The translations under genes and the position numbers were made by a program. The notes under the pieces are model-generated. The model made no database searches and was not told the origin of the DNA. It saw only the letters and a list, made by a program, of their open reading frames with translations. A DNA stretch of 63,992 bases, counting the filler, from Gonapodya sp. JEL0774 (taxonomy: Eukaryota), in the NCBI GenBank assembly GCA_027604505.1. It is 5 parts of 5 records of this genome, joined end to end, with 100 filler letters (N's around TTAATTAATTAA, not from the genome) between each part and the next. Parts side by side here need not be neighbours in the genome. Positions count along the whole stretch, not along the records: positions 56,634 to 63,992 come from JADIIX010000507.1; 4 more parts are not named here. One strand, given 5' to 3'. This document shows, in pieces, positions 5,448 through 63,992 of the stretch (its first letter is position 1; each line of letters begins with the position of its first letter).

Positions 5448-6812
5448 CTAATTGTCTACAACAGGGGGTGCGTGGTAATCACGTTCCGCCTGGATTCGCA
5501 TATAGTCATCCCACATCCTCTGAGCTGTCTGCTCCCTCCCCACCACTGCTGGCTCCATATGGCGACATTGTGACTGCACCACCCTGCTCACTGTTGGGCC
5601 CACTGGGTATGGGTTAACGGCAACAAAGTCTGTGGCGATTGCGTCCCCAGCACCATGGGTCCGCTGATCCACAAAATTGTAGATCACAATACATGCCTGT
5701 AGAGTGAAGTACATGTACCACCCACCTTTCTCTAGTGCCTGTGTCCTGTTCTTAGCTATGCCGATCACCCACTCAACTATATTGCAGAGGGATGAGTGCC
5801 GCAGGTTGTACAGCTCTAGCAGTGTCTGAGGTCAATGTAGACACAGGAATGCATGAGTCAGTGAAATTTTCAACACTCACCTCTTTCCCCACTCTGCCCA
5901 CTCTTTGATGTGATACCGAACCCTGAACTTGTATGGGGTCCTCCACTGCATATTGTGCTCATATCCTGCATCCACAAGGTACCAGCGTCCATCAGGCACA
6001 TGGAGTCCACCTTGCTGAAGGGTGTCCGCAAGGACTGTATGGTTGTGTGCTGAGCCCTTGTACCCTGCATAAACATAAACAAATTGTCCGTCCAGATCCA
6101 CAATCGCGAGAACATTCTGTGAAAGAAAGCTCTTACAATTCCGAAAGGGAACCTGAGTGTCCCCTACAGGTAAGCGTGCCTCGATGTATGTACCGTCAGC
6201 AGCACCAAGGCACCCATCAAAATATGGGTAGAAACGAGGGTTCCCTGTGATTCTTTCTGACTCTGCAGTGTTTGCCATGGGTAGTACAGTATAGTCCTGG
6301 GCAAGAGAAGCAACAGCAGCTTGAGCAGCTCGGATGTAAGCTGTTACAGTGGACAGGGAGTGCTGGAAACGAGTCCGTATAGCCTGCATGGACACTCCTT
6401 GTCCCAGATACATCATTTGCTACTCTACGCTGGCCTCCACTGTGTCAATCAGTCGCTGTCACAAGCAAATCTCCTGGCAGAGGTCTAGGAAGACCTTTTG
6501 CAGCATCCTCAGATTGTCAAGGACCATCTCATCATGGCCCACACAGAATTTCCTGAGTCCAGGCCTTGCCCTGAAGCGCTGCATTGGTCATTGGTTGCGG
6601 AACTCAGCAAGGATGGGGAATCTAAAAAAGAGGCAGCAGCAGCGACAAGCACGACAAAGGCGGCACCAGTTGCCGCGACCATCCCAGTCCTGCCTTCCAC
6701 CTGATTGTTGATTCCACGTCCATATTTTCCACCATGATGCCAATCTGTGATGTGGGAGATGCGGGGTTTCTCGAGGGATTATGTGCGGGATGTTCAGCAC
6801 TTGCTTGACCAA
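5448..6812 (-). pseudogene. Harbinger (DDE_Tnp_4 / HARBI1-like) transposase, disrupted
   Basis: GCLGAADGTYI, SQNVLAIVDLDGQFVYVYAGYKGSAHN, YLVDAGY, HSSLCNIVEWVIG motifs; in-frame stops and frameshifts. Confidence 0.9.
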
Positions 6813-9004: not shown

Positions 9005-10800
9005 CTACTTGCTACTTTGTTCTTTGATCAGCTCCTTCTGAAGTTTGTCCAAGGACCATTTCTCATCCAGCCGACAAGTCTCAAGAGCTTGTACTGCCCT
9101 CTCCACACCTCCCTCCTTCTCCTGCAGGTCCTCAATGGCCTTGTACAACGCCTTCCACCTACAGGCAAATTGTGAATCTCCAACTCGCCATTGTGCTCCA
9201 AAGCACTTATCCAGCTCCTTCACTGGTGGGCCACCTGCGTATCCATCTATGTACTCGGACCAGCCATCGGGGACTGTCTTGATTGAACGATTGAACTTGT
9301 ACTTGGGCATTTCACCACCTCTGGGCCAACAAAACCCAGAAGTGGCCCTCTCAGGCTCTCCCTCCTCCTCCCCCTCGTTTGCAGCATTAGCACAATTTTG
9401 GTCTCGACCACTCCCAATCTGTTCCTGATCACGCTCACGTTGACCCACTTCACTTGAGTGGTTTGCAGCTGATTGGCCCTGTGTTCGTAGCTCGTGGCTT
9501 CCTCTACTGCTCTGACCCCCACTCCCCGCCAAAGAAGACGCATCAATTGCCGTCAGCGTCTCCGTAAATGAACGAATTCCATTTCCTAGTGCCTTCAGCA
9601 TGGTATTGTTCACTCGAACAAGAGACGAAACCTGATGATTCAAAGAGTCAACAGTTTCTATCAAAGGTTGGACTGTGCGCTGAACCGAAGAGACTGTGTC
9701 ACGTTGATGCGCAGCCATTGCATCCATGAGGTCTGGAACAGCTGTTTGAAGATCTGTCATGACTGGCATTTGAACACCAGGTGCTTCCATGGCTGCCTTC
9801 AACCTGTCCCGGAAGTTATGAAACTGTGGAGACTGAAAGACAGGGGTCTGAAATAAGTGATGGGATTCGTAGGCAGGGTTGCTCATCAAAACTGCCCCAT
9901 CTTGGAGGATAACAATGCGAAGCCACCGCAGTAGATCTAAGAAACCGATGGCTGCAAGATCCTGAGACACTCCTGTCCTACTTGTCACTTCAGCAAATAA
10001 ATCGTCGATCCCGGGAAATATCAGTGACTGCAGATCTTCATCGCGATGCCACGAACTCGGGGCACTGCGTAAAGTCCACTGCAACCTGCCCAGAATGAGA
10101 GTTCACTGCCCTCTTCCATTTTGAAGAGCTAGTGCTCCCTCTGTTTTGGTGGAGTGTCAATCCATCCTCTTGTTGTATCTTGTCCTCAGAGTCCATTTCA
10201 ATCACCTGATCGGCATGCTGTGACTGTCCTTCAGCAGTGGTGGGAGTTTCTCCATTCCCTGACTCAAACCTCCTCACTCCACTCTCTTCTCTTTCATTTT
10301 GTCGCCCCACACAACTTTCACCGTCCTGCGTGGGAGGTTCTACGTTTGAAATCAGCCGATGTTTTCGACTCTTCTTTGCGATTTGGAGCTCATTCCCATC
10401 CTCGTCCACAAAAAACTTTCGTGCAATACGATTGCCGCGAGGGATAATCACTTTCTCCAAGAAAAGAAGGAGCTTGGCCTCCGATACCAAGTCCCTGTCA
10501 GAGAAGTTCCGTTCCAGACACCAAGCCCCCCACAGCTTCTGCGTTGGTTCGTACACTTTCGTTGTTCCTTTTGGACGCTCTGCAAGCTTGTGTTCCACGG
10601 CATGCCTTGTAGCGGCTAGGAGGTCAGCTTCATTCGCAGCGGCTTGCGATAGGTGGGCAGACCCCACGGTTGCAAGTGTCTCTGAATCCAAAGCAGTCCA
10701 GCCGGGGGAAGAAGGTGATTCAGAATTTAAAAGTCGCCCAGCTGCTGCAACTGAAGCGGGCAGCAAAGCGAGTGACGAGACGGAGGGTTGGTTAGACATG
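9005..10800 (-). mobile_element. CryptonF-like (Ndc10/GCR1_C) element protein with most of the tyrosine-recombinase domain missing
   Basis: N-terminus RPKGTTKVYEPTQKLWGAWC..DLVSEAKLLLFL; Ndc10-II tail LIFPGID..GFLDLLRWLRIVILQDGAVL..HHLFQTPVF; C-terminal GCR1_C YKFNRSIKTVPDGWSEYIDGYAGGPPVKELDKCFGAQWR. Frame change near 10040-10085. Confidence 0.8.
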
Positions 10801-11412
10801 GTTTTCGGCGTTCTGTAGAAGGAAATGCTTCGATCTCGCCCATATGTAACTAAAACAACATCCAAACTTACATAATCAGCGGATTTTGTCACTGTTTCGG
10901 TATCCTTCCTTTCCGTTTCTTTTCCAGCGCAATGAGATTCGGCGCCTGCCTTTAAAGAACAATAGTTTCGCAAGTTGAAGCTCCTCGAACGCCTGCAATC
11001 TTGGAAGAGAGATCGAATTCCGTTTGACTTCCACGTAGTTGGCGAGATTGAAGACAAAAGTCCGTGTTTGGGTGGTGGGGAAAGGTCAGTGGCGTGTGGT
11101 TAGTAGACCACAAAGGTCACCTTGCGCACGATAATATTATTATTTACATAAGGTCATGTAACATGTTGGTTTCTAGAGCACTGTGGTGATGTTACCTGCA
11201 TGTTTATTAACCATGGGTCATGACCTGCCCTTGGTGACCCATGACCCAGGGTGCGCAGAGTGGGAGGTTCCTCGCTATTGCAGATTGACCCATGTGAACT
11301 CAAAAACTGTTAAAGAATGTAAATTCAAGACCTTTTGGCAAGTTCAAGTACTCAAAAAAATTTCCGCTGCGCGGCGCTTGAATTCAAGATTGGCCTCCCT
11401 GACACCGATCCA

Positions 11413-30004: not shown

Positions 30005-31008
30005 CTACACCGCCATCTCATACACGTTCAGGACCTCAGACAGCCAATCATGTTCGCCCATTATTCTGGCCACCGCGGTCATTTTCTTCTTCTCCATAAA
30101 ATGGAACCGAAGAGTGTCCTCAGCCCGACTGGCATGCAGCTGCCCCTCCCACCAAGGGAGCACCTCCAAGGCCCTGCACATCTCCGACACCAAACGAATC
30201 ACCCGTCCTTCTTGTTGCAAGGTGTCCGGACTTGAGTTCTTGGGGTAAACATCGATTCGCCAGATTTTCCCGGGACCTGCCCGGTTCGGCGGCGGGCCGA
30301 CCGCGTGACAGAATCGACGGTAGTGGTCGTCCAGGCCCACAAAATAGGAAATTTCTTTGAGTGATTTCTGGGTGCCTGTTGTCGACAAAAGAGGGAGAGC
30401 GCAGGGCTGTATCTCAGAGAGCAGTCGAGAGACGAGTCGAGGTTGTTATTTTTGTTATCATTCGCTCACGCACTGTGTTTCCAGAACCACGTTTCCCATT
30501 TAAAACTGGAACTGATATTCTTCACTTGAGTGATAGGAGGCACGTAATCCGCATCCCCAGCGACCACCGCAAATATACAATGAGGGAAGTTGTTATCGTA
30601 TTTGGCCTGGTACCCCAGGGCCACCATCTGTGTGGTAAGATAAGTGTCCACGCGCTTCTCTTTGCCGGCCACATTTCGATCAAACACCTCGACGTGGATG
30701 AGACCTTCCTCCCGGCTGGTCCTGATTTTCTCCCACAGGGTGTCGTTCGCTGGTGGTCTGCTCCCAACAACAAAGACCTTTTGGACCTGCCTTGTACCCG
30801 CAATGGTGTCGATGAGCATTCCATGGTCGATTCGGAGGTTCTTGAACTGAAGCTTCAGACTGGTGGGGTCGTTGCTGCGGGTGTTGTTTCGATACCCGAC
30901 CAGGAGATGCTCGCCCACCGCATACTTGCCCTCGATGAAGAGGTTCGAGTTGTCGATGAAAATGTAAATCGGCACGGCAGGGGGCGTTTGTGCTGCTGTC
31001 CCGAGCAT
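30005..31008 (-). CDS. NYN-domain (LabA/DUF88, PIN-like) putative ribonuclease
   Basis: IYIFIDNSNLFIEGK, GSRPP, KEKRVDT, AVVAGDADYVPPI, WETWFW; one intron near 30390-30470. Confidence 0.85.
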
Positions 31009-32074
31009 GATGTATGAGGAGCAGAACAGAGAGTGGTTCCTTGGTTTGAATGTCACGGAACTCTGCAAACAAGCCATCAATGCGCCGCCTCACCCAGCCC
31101 TCACAAATACATATATTGGAGAATAAATAATCAATATCAAACATCCCCAAAAGAGATTCGACAGAAACCGACAACAACTTAGGGTTAGGGCGCCTAACCC
31201 CAATGTTGGGCGAGGAACGATTGTAGTCCATGAGCGGGGTGCGCCAACATGTCGAGGGCTCACTGGGCCGAACTGGACTGCCGGAACTCTGCATAAAGTA
31301 TGAAGAGTGTAGAATTCATTCCTGTCTTTGTCGTGAGACCAAAGTGAGAGCCAGCGAAATGAACGAGGGTGAAGTCATTTTCAGATCGAGGGTGTACGTT
31401 GAAATGGGACCGGCGTTCCGGACTTTATGTTTTGCATAGGGTAGGTGTCGTGATCTACGTGAGTTCTGGTTGGCTGTTAGCCGAGAGAATCGCGGGACAG
31501 GAGGAATATTTTCGGAAGGCCGTTGCAAGTTGTACGTATGGCATTGTCGAGGTACGTTTTTGTGGGTGGGGACCTATGTATAGTACAGCAACCCGATGCG
31601 TAACACGTGTATTTTGGGGTTCGAATCTGAGCAGTGTGACATTAAATCGCGAGGATTTAGCTGCAGGGAGCCGGGTACTTCACGAGAAAGAATAATACAA
31701 AGTTCGGCGTGGCTGGGAGCAGCATTGGGATCAATCGCCAACCGGGCAAGGAAGAAGGAACGAATGAGTTTTACTTGAATGGATATGTAGAGAAAACAAG
31801 GGCCGGGCATTGAGTTAGAAGGAAGCAAAGAGGGTAATGGGAGGATTGGGACCATGATTGATGGTAAATGGGGCTGAAGGCCGAGTACAGGAGTTGAGAG
31901 CAGCAGGGGGAGAAAGAACACGAAGGAACAGGAAAGAACAGAAAATGTAATCGATGAATACTAATTCTGGCAGAGGGAAGAGTCTGTGCAGTTGTGTGGA
32001 TCGAACGGCAAAACTCGCGAACCCGACCACCCTCGGCACTGACTGACTGGCACCAACCACCCCACTGCACGGCA

Positions 32075-57914: not shown

Positions 57915-60900
57915 CTAGCGGACTGTCCTTGTGATATTATTCGCTGGGAAGAGAGGTGGAGAGAGGGGGAGAAAACAGAGAAAAGAGAGAGAGGAGGGTA
58001 GAGCACTACACACACCACACCCCCTCCCCATCCGCCACTCCAACTCACCTGAGAGACGCAACGTAATCAGGCCGGTCAGATCCTTGAGCCTGTCCGCGCG
58101 GGCCTTGGCTCCCTCATCTCCAATCCTGTTATCTGGAGAATGGTAGACAATGTAACCATCAAATACATCGACCATGGAACAATCAGACCGAGAGACAGTG
58201 AGTAGCGTGTTCCGCAAGCCACCACATCACACAGCAAAAACCACACCCCTCCCCCATCTGCCGCTCCAACTCACAATTGAGATGCAAGGTAGTCAGGCTG
58301 GTCAAACCGTTGAGACCGTCCGCGAGGGCCTTGGCTCCCTCAGGTCCGATCCAGTTATCTGGAGAATGGTAGACGATGGAACCATCGAATACATCGACCG
58401 ATTGAAACCATGGTCGATGGAACAATCAGAGTCAATCAGATCGTGAGACTGTGAGTCGCGTGTCTCACACGCCACAAAGCCACAAACCAAAAACCACACA
58501 CCCTGCCCCTCCGCCGCTTGAACTCACCATTGAGATCCAACGTGGTGAGGCTGGTCAGATCCTTGAGCACGTCCGCGAGGGTTTTGGCTCCCTCGTCTCC
58601 AATCCTGTTCGCTAGACAATGGTAGACAATGGAACCATCAAATACATCAACCAATCGAAATCATCGACCATGGAACAATCAGACCGAGAGACCGTGAGTA
58701 GCGTGTGGCGCGCGCCACCACACCACACACCGAAAACCACACCCCCTCCCACTCTGCCGCTCCAACTCACACGAGAGATTCAATGTAGTCAGGCTGGTCG
58801 AACCCTTGAGACCGTCCGCGAGGGCCTTGGCTCCCTCGTGATAGATACTGTTATCTAGACAATGGTAGACAATGGAACCATCGAATACATCGACCGATCG
58901 AAACCATCAACCATGGAACCATCAGACCAAGAGACGGTGAGTAGCGTGTCGCGCGCGCCACCACACCACCTCCCCTTCCGCCGTCCCAACTCACAATTGA
59001 GATGCAAGGTAGTCAGGCTGGTCAGATCCTTGAGCCCGTCCGCGAGGGCCTTGGCTCCCTCGTCTCCAATCCTGTTATCTGGAGAATGGTAGACAATGGA
59101 ACCATCAAATACATCGACCATGGAACAATCAGACCGAGAGACAGTGAGTCGCGTGTTCCGCAAGCCACCACATCACACAGCAAAAACCACACCCCTCCCC
59201 CATCTGCCGCTCCAACTCACAATTGAGATGCAACGTACTCAGGCTGGTCGAACCCTTGAGACCGTCCGCGAGGGCCTTGGCTCCCTCAGATCCGATCCTG
59301 TTATCTGGAGAATGGTAGACGATGGAACCATCGAATACATCGACCGATTGAAACCATGGTCGATGGAACAATCAGAGTCAATCAGATCGTGAGACTGTGA
59401 GTCGCGTGTCCCACACGCCACCACACCACACACCAAAAACCACACCCCCTCCCCCTCTGCCGCTCCAACTCACATGAGAGATTCAACGTAGTCAGGCTGG
59501 TCGAACCCTTGAGACCGTCCGCGAGGGCCTTGGCTCCCTCAGGTCCGATCCTGATATCTGGAGAATGGTAGACGATGGCACCATCGAATACATCGACCGA
59601 TTGAAACCATGGTCAATGGAGCAATCAGAGTCAATCAGATCGTGAGACCGTGAGTCGCGTGTCCCACACGCCACCACGCCACACACTGAAAACCACACTT
59701 CCGCCCCATCCGCCGCTTCAACTCACCATGGAGACCCAACGTGGTGAGGCTGGTCAGATCCTTGAGAACGTCTGCGAGGGTTTTGGCTCCCTCAGGCCCG
59801 ATCCTGTTATCTGGAGAATGGTAGACGATGGAACCATCGAATACATCAACCGATTGAAACCATGGTCGATGGAACAATCAGAGTCAATCAGATTGTGAGA
59901 CCGTGAGTCGCGTGTCCCACACACCACAAAGCCACAAACCAAAAACCACACCCCCTCCCCCTCCGCCGCTTCAACTCACCATTGAGATCCAATTCGGTCA
60001 ATGTCGTATTGCCCTTGAGCCCGTCCGCGAGGGCCTTCGCTCCTTCAGGTCCGATCCTGTTATCTAGACAATGGAACCATTGACCGATCAAAAAAGTCAA
60101 TCAGATGGAGAGACCGTGAGTCGCTTGTCGCGCACACCACCACACCACACACCAAACCCCTCCGCACCCCTCTGCCGCTCCAACTCACAATTGAGATGCA
60201 ACGTGGTGAGGCTGGTATGGCCTTTGAGTCCTTGCGAGAGGGCCTTCGCTCCCTCGTCTCCGATGTAGTTCTCTGGGATGTAAGTGGGATGAGTCATCGC
60301 GGAGGGGGTACATGTGAGTGGTAGTAAGGAAAGGTAAGACGTGAGCGTGAGCTTGAGGGAATGTTTGGGAGGAGAAAGGTTAGACGCTGTTCACTCACCT
60401 TTCAAATTGAGCTTCTGTAGGGACGTGAGGCCCTTCAAGGCTTCTTTAAGTATGTTCCCAGCCTTTTCGCCGATCAAAACGTTGTCTGGCCGGGTCAAAG
60501 ATGTGAGAATGTTGTTCCCGCTGCTGTTCCCGACGCATGCTTCAAGGAAGTTCACCTTCAAGATCCAGTTCAATCAGCATAGTGGTTCTTGCTAGTGCAT
60601 CACCAAGGGCTTGCAGTCCTTCAACTTCAACAGAACTTCCTAAGATGTGAAGAGGTATCCATTGGAATTGATTTCCACCATCGGAGTACGGAAGCACACC
60701 GGCGAGATATGGCAATCCACTCATACGCACCCGAGAGATCCAATATTGTTAAATGAGAAGCCACCGTGCCCTGCTTCAGCGCATGAGCAAGCGCCCGTGC
60801 ACCCACGACACCAATAATTCGATCTAGAATCACGAAGAAATGTATGTAAATGTTGCATGGTAGTCAGCTGCTATGGCGCTTGTCCCCATGCAACGAAACA

Positions 60901-63178
60901 GCAAAAAAATGAGCTGTGGATCAAATTGTCTCACCTTTGAAACTAAGAGTGTTCCCATTGGAGGAGTTTGACAACGCATTTATCATGCTATCAATGCTGA
61001 TGGTGTCCATCCATGTCCCTGAAACGGTCATCCAGTGCGATCAGACGTTGGTAGATAAAAATAACATTGAGGACTCACTCACTCTTCTTCCCAATGTTTC
61101 GAATCTCGAGGATTGCCAAGGCTTTGAGAGGGTGACCATCGGGAGACAACCTTTTGACACGCTCAAACTCTGTCTTGCCATCGCGCTGGCGGTTGCAGGC
61201 GAGATAGGCTCTACCAAGGTGGAGCCGCCACTCCAGTGATTCCACGCTTTTGTCCTCCTCTTTTGAGTTTTCCTCTCTGGGTGGTTTGATCATCTCTTCC
61301 AGTATTTTCACCGTTCTGACCGCCTGTCCACCAGAAAAGCAGGCAAGGGCGAGTGCGTACCGCGCTTCCAGCACGAGAGTATCGTCTTGCGACTTGTCTT
61401 TTTGCACGGCTACAACGACTGGTGACGATTTTTCACTTTGTCGGTCCTGTTGTCCCCGTAGAAAACTCAAAATGGGAGGCAGAGACCAGCCGCCCTGAGT
61501 CGTACTTGAGGTAGAAGGCATGACAACAGTGTTATGCTTGAAATCCCTCCGGGGCAAGAGCAGAGAATGTTGTGTGACATCTTGCCTTCCTTTGAGGCAT
61601 ATTTCGAGTAAGGGGATTGCATCCTTTCCTCTCCCATCTTTAATCAGACATCGCCCAACCTGGAGGCACAGGTCGTACTTCTCAGTGAGCTCTTCGACAT
61701 CTTCCTCACTGAGAACTTTTGAAGCGTGCGGGAGGTACTCCCTCCATCGCTCTCGATTTTGCCATTCGTCTGTTGGAAATATCTTTAAGATGTGTTTGAT
61801 CGCCTCTTTCATCGTTTTGGAAAAGAGGGTCCCGTTCTGTGAGAGAGCGTCGTCAATTACTTGCCCACGTAGCCAGTTCCGTGCTGCCAGATGTACGAGG
61901 CGATGGAGATCGTATCGTTCCTCCTCTGAGCCCTTTACCTCCCGAGAAGACACAAACGCATACGATTTCAGTATGCCGATGGTTGTATCTATGTCCTCTT
62001 CTGGTTCCATTGGCAGAATACTTTTAGGGATCGCCTTCCATTCTACACATCCCATGAACGCAAGAAGCTTTGCAGAGTTTCGACTTTCCTTGGACATCTG
62101 CCCAAACGAAATTAACCACGTTGTTGCTACTGATTTCTGAGATTTCTTAGAACTTGTGTCATCCAGGAGCTTAATCACTTGTTCCTCGTTAATTGCACGC
62201 ATCTTCTCCAAGTACTTTTTTATGGTGACTCGTTTAACGTTAATGAAAGAGGTTACCTGAGAGATCGCCAGTGGAAAGTATGCGAGCTCATTCAATAGCT
62301 CTCTTAAGCTCGAATTGTCGTCGAGCTCGTGTTTGGGTTGGACAGAGTTCCTGAAAAGTTCGGTCGCGTCTTCGTTACTCATTCCTTCCACATCAATGAA
62401 ATGATGTCCCGTTAGTCCGTTTGCCATTTCTCCATAGCGGGTTGTAAACAGAAGGAGACCGTGTTTGCTGTGTGGAAGGTAGTAATGAATACCGCGTCCC
62501 TGCTTGGGAAACACAATATCTGCATCATCGGCATTGTCCACAATCAAGAGCCACCGTCCGGCTGCCTCCTCGCTCAAGTACCGCGTGACAACCTCCTTGA
62601 CATCTTCCGTTTCCCCTATCATATGAGAGATCCCAACCTTTATAGCCACCTCCTTGCAGGCCTGCTCAAAGCTCTCCATACTAAGCGCTGGAAACCAAAA
62701 GATTGAGTAGTCTTTATATGTGTCCTCCACACTGTACGCAAACTCCAGTGCGATCTGCGTCTTCCCGACACCACCCAGTCCCAGGAGAGATAACCTCTGA
62801 CAGTCTTTATTGTCGAAGAGTTTTCTTGTCAAAGTGGCGAGTATGTCGCGACGGCCCACAAACTCTTTGTTCCTCGAAAAGGGAATGTAGTAGTGGGGTG
62901 CAGGGGAGGAGCCAGGAGTCGCGCTAACTTTGGATTGTGAAGCACTGATGGCATTCATGATATTACAGCGGTCAAAGGTACGGACAGTAAGCACGCGGAG
63001 CTTTGAATGGTCGAGCTTACCTCGAGCCTTGGTGGATAGAATTGCCCATGTGTAAACGCGCATTGCCGTCAATGTACTGGGCCCCTACTGAGTAGGTGAT
63101 ATTATTCACTGTTTGCGGAGATAGCGACGGACTCTGAAGGTGTGGTTCAGCAGCAGTAGCGGTGTCGGACATCGCCAT
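57915..63178 (-). CDS. NLR-like STAND protein: HET-s-like amyloid motif - NB-ARC - TPR-like - 14 LRR exons (~1078 aa, 17 exons)
   Basis: Manual GT-AG splice model: 63178-63021, 62944-61083, 61018-60935, 60823-60731, 60639-60556, 60485-60399, ten 84-nt exons (60272-60189, 60063-59980, 59810-59727, 59557-59474, 59304-59221, 59078-58995, 58854-58771, 58611-58528, 58358-58275, 58132-58049), then 57943-57915; 3237 nt, open throughout. Walker A GLGGVGKT, Walker B LLIVDNADD, LLFTTR, FPLAI, YDLHRLVH. Confidence 0.82.
58049..60272 (-). repeat. Tandem exon+intron array, 10 units of 209-253 bp, each with one 28-aa RI-like LRR
   Basis: Consensus xNRIGxEGAKALADGLKxxTSLTTLxLx; the introns are also homologous to each other. 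Confidence 0.95.
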
Positions 63179-63492
63179 ATCCAAGAAGGGAAGGGATTTG
63201 GAGTGGGGGAATGTGAGTGGTATTTTTCGGAGCCGACTGGCACAGAGCCTAGAAAACCGTGAGGTAAGGAATTCAAAAGAGACACGGTCCCATCCACATC
63301 ACTTCAGAGCTGACAGTGGAGTGGGATCGACACCAACAAGGCCCGACAGGTTTTCCCCTTCGCAGTCCTTGGAAAGAGTCATGCGACTGAACTTGATTAG
63401 GGTGGCGCAGCTACTTGGACCTCCATCCCACCTCCCAAACTGCACAGAGCAATCGTTTCCCAGTCACAGTAGGATTATCATCGCCCTTTATC

Positions 63493-63609
63493 ATGGCTGA
63501 GGCTTTCGGGATCGTCTCGGGAGCTGTCGGTATCGCCGCCACCTTCAACACCTGTCTCGAATGCTTCAACCACAAATCACAGATACTTTCGAAATTTAGA
63601 AATTTTTGA
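63493..63609 (+). pseudogene. 5' fragment of a HET-S-like HeLo-domain gene, interrupted after codon 26
   Basis: MAEAFGIVSGAVGIAATFNTCLECFN resembles the recalled HET-s N-terminus (MSEPFGIVAGALNVAGLFNNCVDCFEY). Similarity stops abruptly at 63570 with no GT donor. Confidence 0.75.
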
Positions 63610-63992
63610 TAAGATCAGATCAGAAAATGAAAGTACAGGAAAAGATTCAGGACTTGCACCTGAGAGAATTCAGTCGGAGAGACTTTAGGGAATGAAATCT
63701 GAGATGTTGTTCTCTGAGACAGTGTCGTAGAAGTGCAAGTATGAGGGCGAACCAGTCACGATACGTCCCGCAATGGTCCCACGGACAAAATCCGTTGCCT
63801 CGGTAAGTTTTCTACTTGAATTGACCGAGCTCTTTTTGTCTTTTTCCGCTCTTTTCCCTCTTCCTACTCTCAGACTGCTCGGTTTCCCCCCACTCTCGCT
63901 CGCCCCTTCCTCCACCACGGAACCTTTATTGTCGCACTCGAAAGCAGAACATGCATCGCCGCATCTCGTTTTGTAGCCTCGTTATTTCTCCA

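Follow-up and report, generated by a model that had tools for sequence, protein, structure and literature searches.

A putative HET-s-related amyloid seeding motif on a predicted LRR-bearing NLR of Gonapodya, beside a broken HeLo gene

A Gonapodya locus compared with nwd2/het-S

Both the HET-s-type motif class and the layout of the nwd2/het-S gene pair are already known. In Podospora anserina, nwd2 and het-S are divergently transcribed, and NWD2 is a STAND protein with a single N-terminal motif of 21 amino acids (PMC4344463, cited here and below for its available sections). Here we describe a related locus in the window, i.e., the whole analysed stretch of 63,992 nt from Gonapodya sp. JEL0774 (see Table 1). 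It resembles the Podospora system in the single N-terminal motif on a predicted STAND protein, in the divergent HeLo neighbour, and in the motif residues G12, R15, G19 and N20. It differs in that NWD2 is a NACHT-WD40 protein whereas the window NLR is predicted to be of NB-ARC-TPR-LRR type, in the motif residues Tyr3 and Gln8, in its broken HeLo side, and in its host, a zoosporic fungus. A literature search that missed most subscription papers found no HET-s-type motif reported for a lineage outside Dikarya and no report on NLRs of Gonapodya, and neither appeared in the available parts of PMC9815663, PMC11291939, PMC12881547, PMC10197012, PMC8778642 and PMC12261475.

The reading that we favour, with moderate confidence and from sequence comparison, is that exon 1 codes for a genuine r0 seeding motif of the HET-s family on a predicted Gonapodya NLR of 1,078 amino acids, next to a broken HeLo gene. 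The two genes are likely the remnant of a pair of the nwd2/het-S type.

Table 1 Features of the predicted NLR gene and of its HeLo neighbour, in window positions
Feature	Position	Strand	Remarks
Truncated HeLo (het-S-like) gene	63493..63612	+	About 27 codons of homology, then unrelated sequence; two stops at 63607-63612
Spacer between the divergent ATGs	63179..63492		314 nt
Exon 1 of the NLR	63021..63178	-	158 nt, 52 codons plus 2 nt, phase 2; start ATG at 63178
HET-s-related r0 motif ITYSVGAQYIDGNARLHMGNS	63038..63100	-	Single copy; Y3, V5, Q8, I10, G12, R15, L16, M18, G19, N20
Predicted intron 1	62945..63020	-	76 nt, GTAAGC...CAG, phase 2
Exon 2	61083..62944	-	NB-ARC, then degenerate TPR-like helices
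14 predicted phase-1 exons	58049..61018	-	84-93 nt each, one repeat per exon
Predicted terminal exon with stop	57915..57943	-	Closes an ORF of 1,078 amino acids

The motif and the exon that encodes it

The first-pass annotation had proposed a spliced exon 1, and its translation was read back identically from 63178 to 63021 (minus strand); the donor that it named at 63020 and the CAG-ending intron of 76 nt are both present, and the join to the NB-ARC exon is in frame. The exon contains an additional in-frame ATG at 63172 and has no match in Pfam or PDB. Without splicing, its frame meets a stop directly after the exon. Six AG acceptors lie 40-160 nt from the donor, three of which keep the frame (76, 97 and 148 nt), and the exact acceptor of intron 1 is therefore not fixed. 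The public Gonapodya models P0001-P0004 have annotated starts of the type ATG 63063 or 62958, inside or after exon 1; one of them, the paralog P0004, has its annotated start at an ATG within the motif, in a different frame.

The motif, first placed at 63035..63097, stands, but in the numbering of PMC4518210 it runs from 63100 to 63038 (residues 27-47). Gly is present at the invariant position 19, R15 and N20 are kept, and D11 and R15 are the only charged residues. Four of the five hydrophobic core positions (5, 8, 10, 16 and 18) are kept, the exception being Gln at position 8, a residue also found in some published r0, r1 and r2 rows (PMC4518210 file S2). Position 3 is Tyr, i.e., not the Asn of HRAM1, the Gln of HRAM2 or the His of HRAM3. 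The caveat attached to the motif from the outset (Tyr at the first Asn-ladder position) was thus correct but incomplete, since Gln at core position 8 had gone unflagged. Likewise, the label “HET-s-type” holds in the sense of a HET-s-related r0 motif but not as membership of the canonical HET-s (HRAM1) subfamily. The HET-s repeats used in the original alignment are the same as those in the published table (PMC4518210 file S2).

Counted by eye, the motif shares 8/21 residues with the r0 motif of NWD2, 7/21 with HET-s r2, 5/21 with HET-s r1, and 9/21 with the HypCI4A r0 motif, which also has an aromatic residue at position 3 and Gln at position 8 (PMC4518210 file S2). The HypCI4A and Antav1 r0 rows are alike in kind to it at positions 3, 5, 8, 10, 12, 14, 15 and 19; they differ in having Asn18 and intact cognate effectors with two repeats, whereas residue 18 of the window motif is Met and no cognate effector is known for it. 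We take both row labels to denote Xylariales. The predicted NLR contains one scoring copy, the next best segment reaching 2.9 bits on our own profile. According to the available text of PMC9815663, r0 motifs usually lie at positions 5-9 from the start, and ours lies farther in. Among NWD2 mutants, Gly at position 19 and two core valines were the most important residues, while the loss of one Asn-ladder position was tolerated (PMC4344463).

We assessed the match with a profile built from eight HET-s-type repeats, picked by eye from 4 of 34 fetched metagenome HeLo loci; the published HRAM1-5 profiles are a separate set. The window motif scored 17.9 bits, the first of 65,632 stop-free six-frame 21-mers of the window (runner-up: 9.7 bits), where the training repeats themselves scored 7.3-18.7 bits when left out. 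None of 20,000 shuffles of exon 1 reached this score, and among 95,770 21-mers from 124 real proteins the best had 11.4 bits and none reached 15.7 bits. First rank was kept with 8/8 seven-repeat, 26-27/28 six-repeat and 41-46/70 four-repeat subsets of the profile and lost in many four- and five-repeat subsets, and motif positions 7-9 had negative profile scores. The motif was also the sole match in the window to a class rule drawn from the published description, a rule that omitted positions 3 and 8, already known to fail in this motif. The match exceeds chance. No r0 motif was present in the annotated sequences of the 120 listed NB-ARC relatives (of 2,179).

It is very likely that the motif derives from the HRAM family, and somewhat probable that it could still form a signalling amyloid. 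HRAM subfamilies keep their fold at very low identity and yet show cross-seeding barriers (bioRxiv 10.1101/2020.07.06.188508, available part), so that seeding by [Het-s] would be a poor test of the window motif; as the motif falls outside canonical HRAM1, a failed seeding experiment would not refute it.

To find relatives of exon 1 we ran a phmmer search of 1.84 billion representative proteins, a search that is weak for 21-mers. It returned three matches, none of them a two-repeat effector matching the window motif. The only strong one (E=1.9e-9) was the N-terminus of P0123 (HDU93_005754, from the same Gonapodya strain), 68% identical to exon 1 in the same frame; the other two, one bacterial and one slime-mould repeat protein (P0124 and P0125), were rejected as compositional. 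When the P0004 gene was compared with the window by minimal changes at exon 1, wobble positions had changed in 8/14 codons and second positions in 1/14 (Fisher p=0.013), a bias which points to selection on the exon 1 peptide, and the shifted frame of P0004 is compatible with the P0123 motif at 14/15 residues. The intron 1 part showed no wobble bias (1/23 and 3/23). By the same measure, intron 1 was unexpectedly more conserved than exon 1 (4 minimal changes over its 23 codons, compared with 9 over the 14 of the exon), which may be a mark of recombination at the exon boundary. Taken as a sequence-based prediction, exon 1 is very probably coding. The original proposal of an r0-like, HET-s-related motif in a missed first exon of an NLR is thus supported by the profile score, the P0123 model in the same frame, the codon-position signal and the HeLo start that lies head-to-head with it.

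The receptor, its HeLo neighbour and their origin

Exon 2 encodes an NB-ARC domain (Pfam 55.5 bits, cut-off 23.5) with intact Walker A (P-loop), Walker B, sensor-1 and MHD-like motifs, followed by a TPR_14 match under the Pfam cut-off (E=0.01), and is 90% identical to P0001 from the same strain. A donor at 61082, shortly before the stop of the exon 2 ORF, opens the way to the repeat exons, of which the last ten encode clear ribonuclease-inhibitor-type LRRs and the first four are degenerate. The resulting 17-exon GT-AG model has no internal stop across its 1,078 codons. Single-repeat LRR fragments from the window had no Pfam match at E<=0.001; in the paralog models P0002 and P0004, NB-ARC, TPR and LRR_6 are joined in one protein and LRR_6 passes Pfam, and the P0001 model extends into the first of the 14 repeat exons. 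It is probable that the LRR exons belong to the same protein as the NB-ARC domain.

Ten of the LRR exons are near-copies (nine of them 68-93% identical in DNA, with the introns between them 81-99% identical). This near-identity of exons and introns suggests that the array arose by recent tandem duplication. Within the array (58049-60272, minus strand), repeat positions 2, 5, 18 and 25 are the most variable, possibly marking a diversifying sensor surface. Animal NLRs have one ribonuclease-inhibitor-type LRR per exon. The window gene model is like animal NLRs and plant NB-LRRs in having a NOD followed by an LRR array, with 84-nt phase-1 exons, and unlike them in that its NOD is of the fungal NB-ARC-TPR type; the NOD-LRR fusion is likely independent of theirs. 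The predicted protein has a motif-NB-ARC-TPR-LRR architecture that has been reported as absent from fungi: in its available parts, the survey of Dyrka 2014 (PMC4986451) gives no LRR among 5,616 candidate NLRs of fungi, and the chytrids sampled at that time yielded no NLR. Another source, as far as available (PMC12258605), reports NLR counts that go down to one in some species of chytrids, under an NLR definition that admitted LRRs; “LRR” does not occur in 12 of its 17 supplementary files, and the remaining five may bear on the absence of LRRs from fungi.

The HeLo stub lies adjacent to the NLR gene, head-to-head and divergent, which is the nwd2/het-S layout. It matches positions 1-22 of the Pfam HeLo profile (E=1.7e-4) with 21.9 bits, slightly under the cut-off of 23.2, and is 81-82% identical over 27-28 residues to P0121 (Cladochytrium tenue) and P0122 (metagenome). 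An intact effector with two C-terminal repeats was not found, the HeLo gene in the window breaking after about 27 codons. Further HeLo homology was absent from the rest of the window, which ends 419 nt past the break; the remainder of the gene could be located past position 63992. Rescue of the stub by splicing was rejected, there being no GT from the break to the stops, and no repeat marks the break. The stretch at 63731-63992 (plus strand), past the break, holds an intron-like element (GTAAGT at 63803, a pyrimidine tract and CAG at 63873) flanked by two open stretches that have no Pfam match; HeLo may have been interrupted by this gene or element.

A head-to-head P-loop NLR was found in 2 of the 34 fetched HeLo loci, L002 and L003, which are the second and third best matches to the stub. 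Both carry an r0 motif, with spacers of 237 and 303 nt respectively, and in L002 a donor site follows the short first exon that holds the motif. For L001, the best match, the upstream sequence is limited to 609 nt and contains no P-loop. The HeLo gene is broken in L001 and L002 as well. Three further loci (L004-L006) have HeLo ORFs with two HRAM-like repeats, head-to-head with a non-NLR gene, which we take to resemble an RNA methyltransferase. A search with the stub yielded two matches, neither of them a Gonapodya HeLo protein (five candidates only, a weak search). P0121, from a second chytrid lineage, is a candidate partial HeLo protein on a 2.8-kb contig.

The 120 listed relatives of exon 2 (of 2,179) comprise 6 from Gonapodya, 49 from other named genera and 65 unnamed, and we take all 49 named ones to be genera of Pezizomycotina. 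We built an NB-ARC tree from the window protein, all 6 Gonapodya rows, 34 of the 49 named and 8 of the 65 unnamed rows, and one distant NB-ARC outgroup, which was long and half filled. The seven Gonapodya rows grouped together (100/99), nested within a clade of 35 rows that includes 22 from ascomycetes (100/97). In an AU test on a 21-row subset, basal branching of Gonapodya outside the ascomycete rows was not rejected (p=0.06). Given this value and the long outgroup, we regard acquisition of NB-ARC and HeLo from ascomycetes as likely only. P0007, a PNP_UDP-NB-ARC NLR of the same strain, is sister in the tree to the window NLR family; the PNP_UDP N-terminus occurs in ascomycete and not in basidiomycete NLRs (PMC9815663, available text). 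GC3 was not decisive (0.54 for exon 2, 0.61-0.65 for the five host fragments, 0.74 for the short HeLo stub). An ascomycete contaminant contig was judged unlikely: the NLR is surrounded by housekeeping genes rich in introns, and several Gonapodya models join it to LRR exons. The genes nearby are ordinary ones (CPSase, SEY1, a SNARE, symplekin, an ankyrin-SH3 protein and a lipase). Elsewhere the window contains, all on the minus strand, a DDE_Tnp_4 transposase fragment (5877-6419), an NDC10_II/GCR1_C element (9005-11099), presumably Crypton-like, and a gene for an NYN-domain protein with few or no introns (30466-31089).

Candidate partner and alternative readings

The motif match, the open frame, the intact NB-ARC motifs, the HeLo stub and the layout were observed, and the functional steps are inferred from the NWD2 model. 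On that model, the repeat region of the NLR would bind a ligand, the NB-ARC domains would then oligomerise, the single motifs of the oligomer would stack into a beta-solenoid seed, and this seed would template, in trans, a partner with a compatible motif. Since the adjacent HeLo gene is broken, the gene for this partner would lie elsewhere.

The P0123 class of proteins is the best candidate seen, a possible but doubtful partner. P0123 is not an NLR: in this predicted protein, a copy of exon 1 is followed by a helical region and by kinase (PK_Tyr_Ser-Thr, 150 bits) and PARP (54 bits) domains. Its motif is identical to that of the window at 14/21 positions, including G12, A14, R15 and G19, and the 7/21 differences include Pro20; a proline at the position after 20 cripples NWD2 (PMC4344463). 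In view of these differences, its cognate receptor would be of the P0004 type and not the window gene. Similarity to the window continues for about 10 residues into the intron 1 sequence, with Gln where the window has a stop, and the breakpoint therefore lies within the intron. This fits both a read-through fusion and a gene-prediction artefact. Among 5,397 candidates, the only homolog of residues 1-300 was P0123 itself.

The helical region has Atlas leads (0.87 and 0.86) to clusters in which 30% and 36% of the members carry MLKL_N. Its predicted structure is of low confidence (pLDDT 54), with four helices at the start, and the structures that it matches best are bundles of a generic kind (best Z 10.5, rmsd 3.1, 110 aligned); MLKL was absent from the 50 VIA structural matches listed, and the segment had no MLKL_N match in Pfam, no PDB sequence match and no Foldseek match at E<=0.001. 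An MLKL-type bundle is a lead only, taken from these models. If real, P0123 would resemble the RIPK1/RIPK3-MLKL necroptosis system in having a single amyloid motif common to an upstream protein and a kinase, and both that system and fungal HeLo-like/kinase fusions (PMC12881547, available part) in having a helical bundle before the kinase. It would differ from RIPK1/RIPK3-MLKL in that the motif is HET-s-type and not a RHIM, in that it lies N-terminal to the bundle, and in the extra PARP domain.

The most elaborate form of the favoured reading is one that we hold tentatively and consider rather improbable as a whole. An ascomycete NLR/HET-S amyloid cassette would have been imported, gained its own LRR sensor with one exon per repeat and lost its HeLo executioner, with the amyloid exon rewired onto an MLKL-like kinase-PARP protein. 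The outcome would be a necroptosis-like amyloid pathway from NB-LRR to kinase that arose independently of the animal one and in which at least two variants of the motif mark separate channels.

Alternatively, the HET-s-derived motif may be translated and yet have been without a function since HeLo broke, drifting at the front of an NLR that either signals by another route or does not signal. We consider this improbable. The broken partner, Tyr3 and Gln8 (and Pro20 in relatives), the lack of a matching two-repeat effector among the three exon 1 search matches, and the frequency of broken HeLo genes (L001 and L002 too) speak for such drift, but the wobble-biased divergence from P0004 points to selection on the peptide, two thirds of the motif, with G12, A14, R15 and G19, is unchanged in P0123, and the rest of the NLR gene is an intact ORF.

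Quite unlikely, in our view, is a canonical pathway acting in trans, in which the motif acts as a seed for an intact HeLo protein with two repeats from another place in the genome, or HeLo is interrupted in this strain only, the kinase fusion being a side product or a gene-prediction join. Non-adjacent NLR/effector pairs have been described (PMC9815663, available text), another chytrid (Cladochytrium tenue) has a HeLo protein, the window stops soon after the HeLo break, and P0123 is a single model whose first 300 residues have no other homolog. Against this, no Gonapodya HeLo protein was among the two matches of the (weak) stub search.

Finally, it is very improbable that exon 1 is unused, with the protein starting at ATG 63063 or 62958 and the resemblance due to chance: P0001-P0004 are annotated with such starts, the annotated frame is open through intron 1 and the intron part is unexpectedly conserved against P0004, but the motif ranks first in the window, the P0123 model uses the exon 1 frame, differences from P0004 sit at second codon positions in the annotated frame, unlike coding-frame divergence, and a HeLo stub adjoins the gene.

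Returning to the favoured reading, HET-s-type amyloid signalling has been described for ascomycetes and agaricomycetes, and this locus would extend its range to a zoosporic lineage. Fungal NLRs have been described as lacking LRRs, a rule that it would break. Given that four public Gonapodya models start inside or after exon 1, surveys based on annotation would miss motifs of this kind. The locus would represent a transitional stage of a pathway, in which the adjacent partner is broken and an unrelated kinase bears a copy of the exon, and would therefore make it testable how an amyloid motif gains a new effector.
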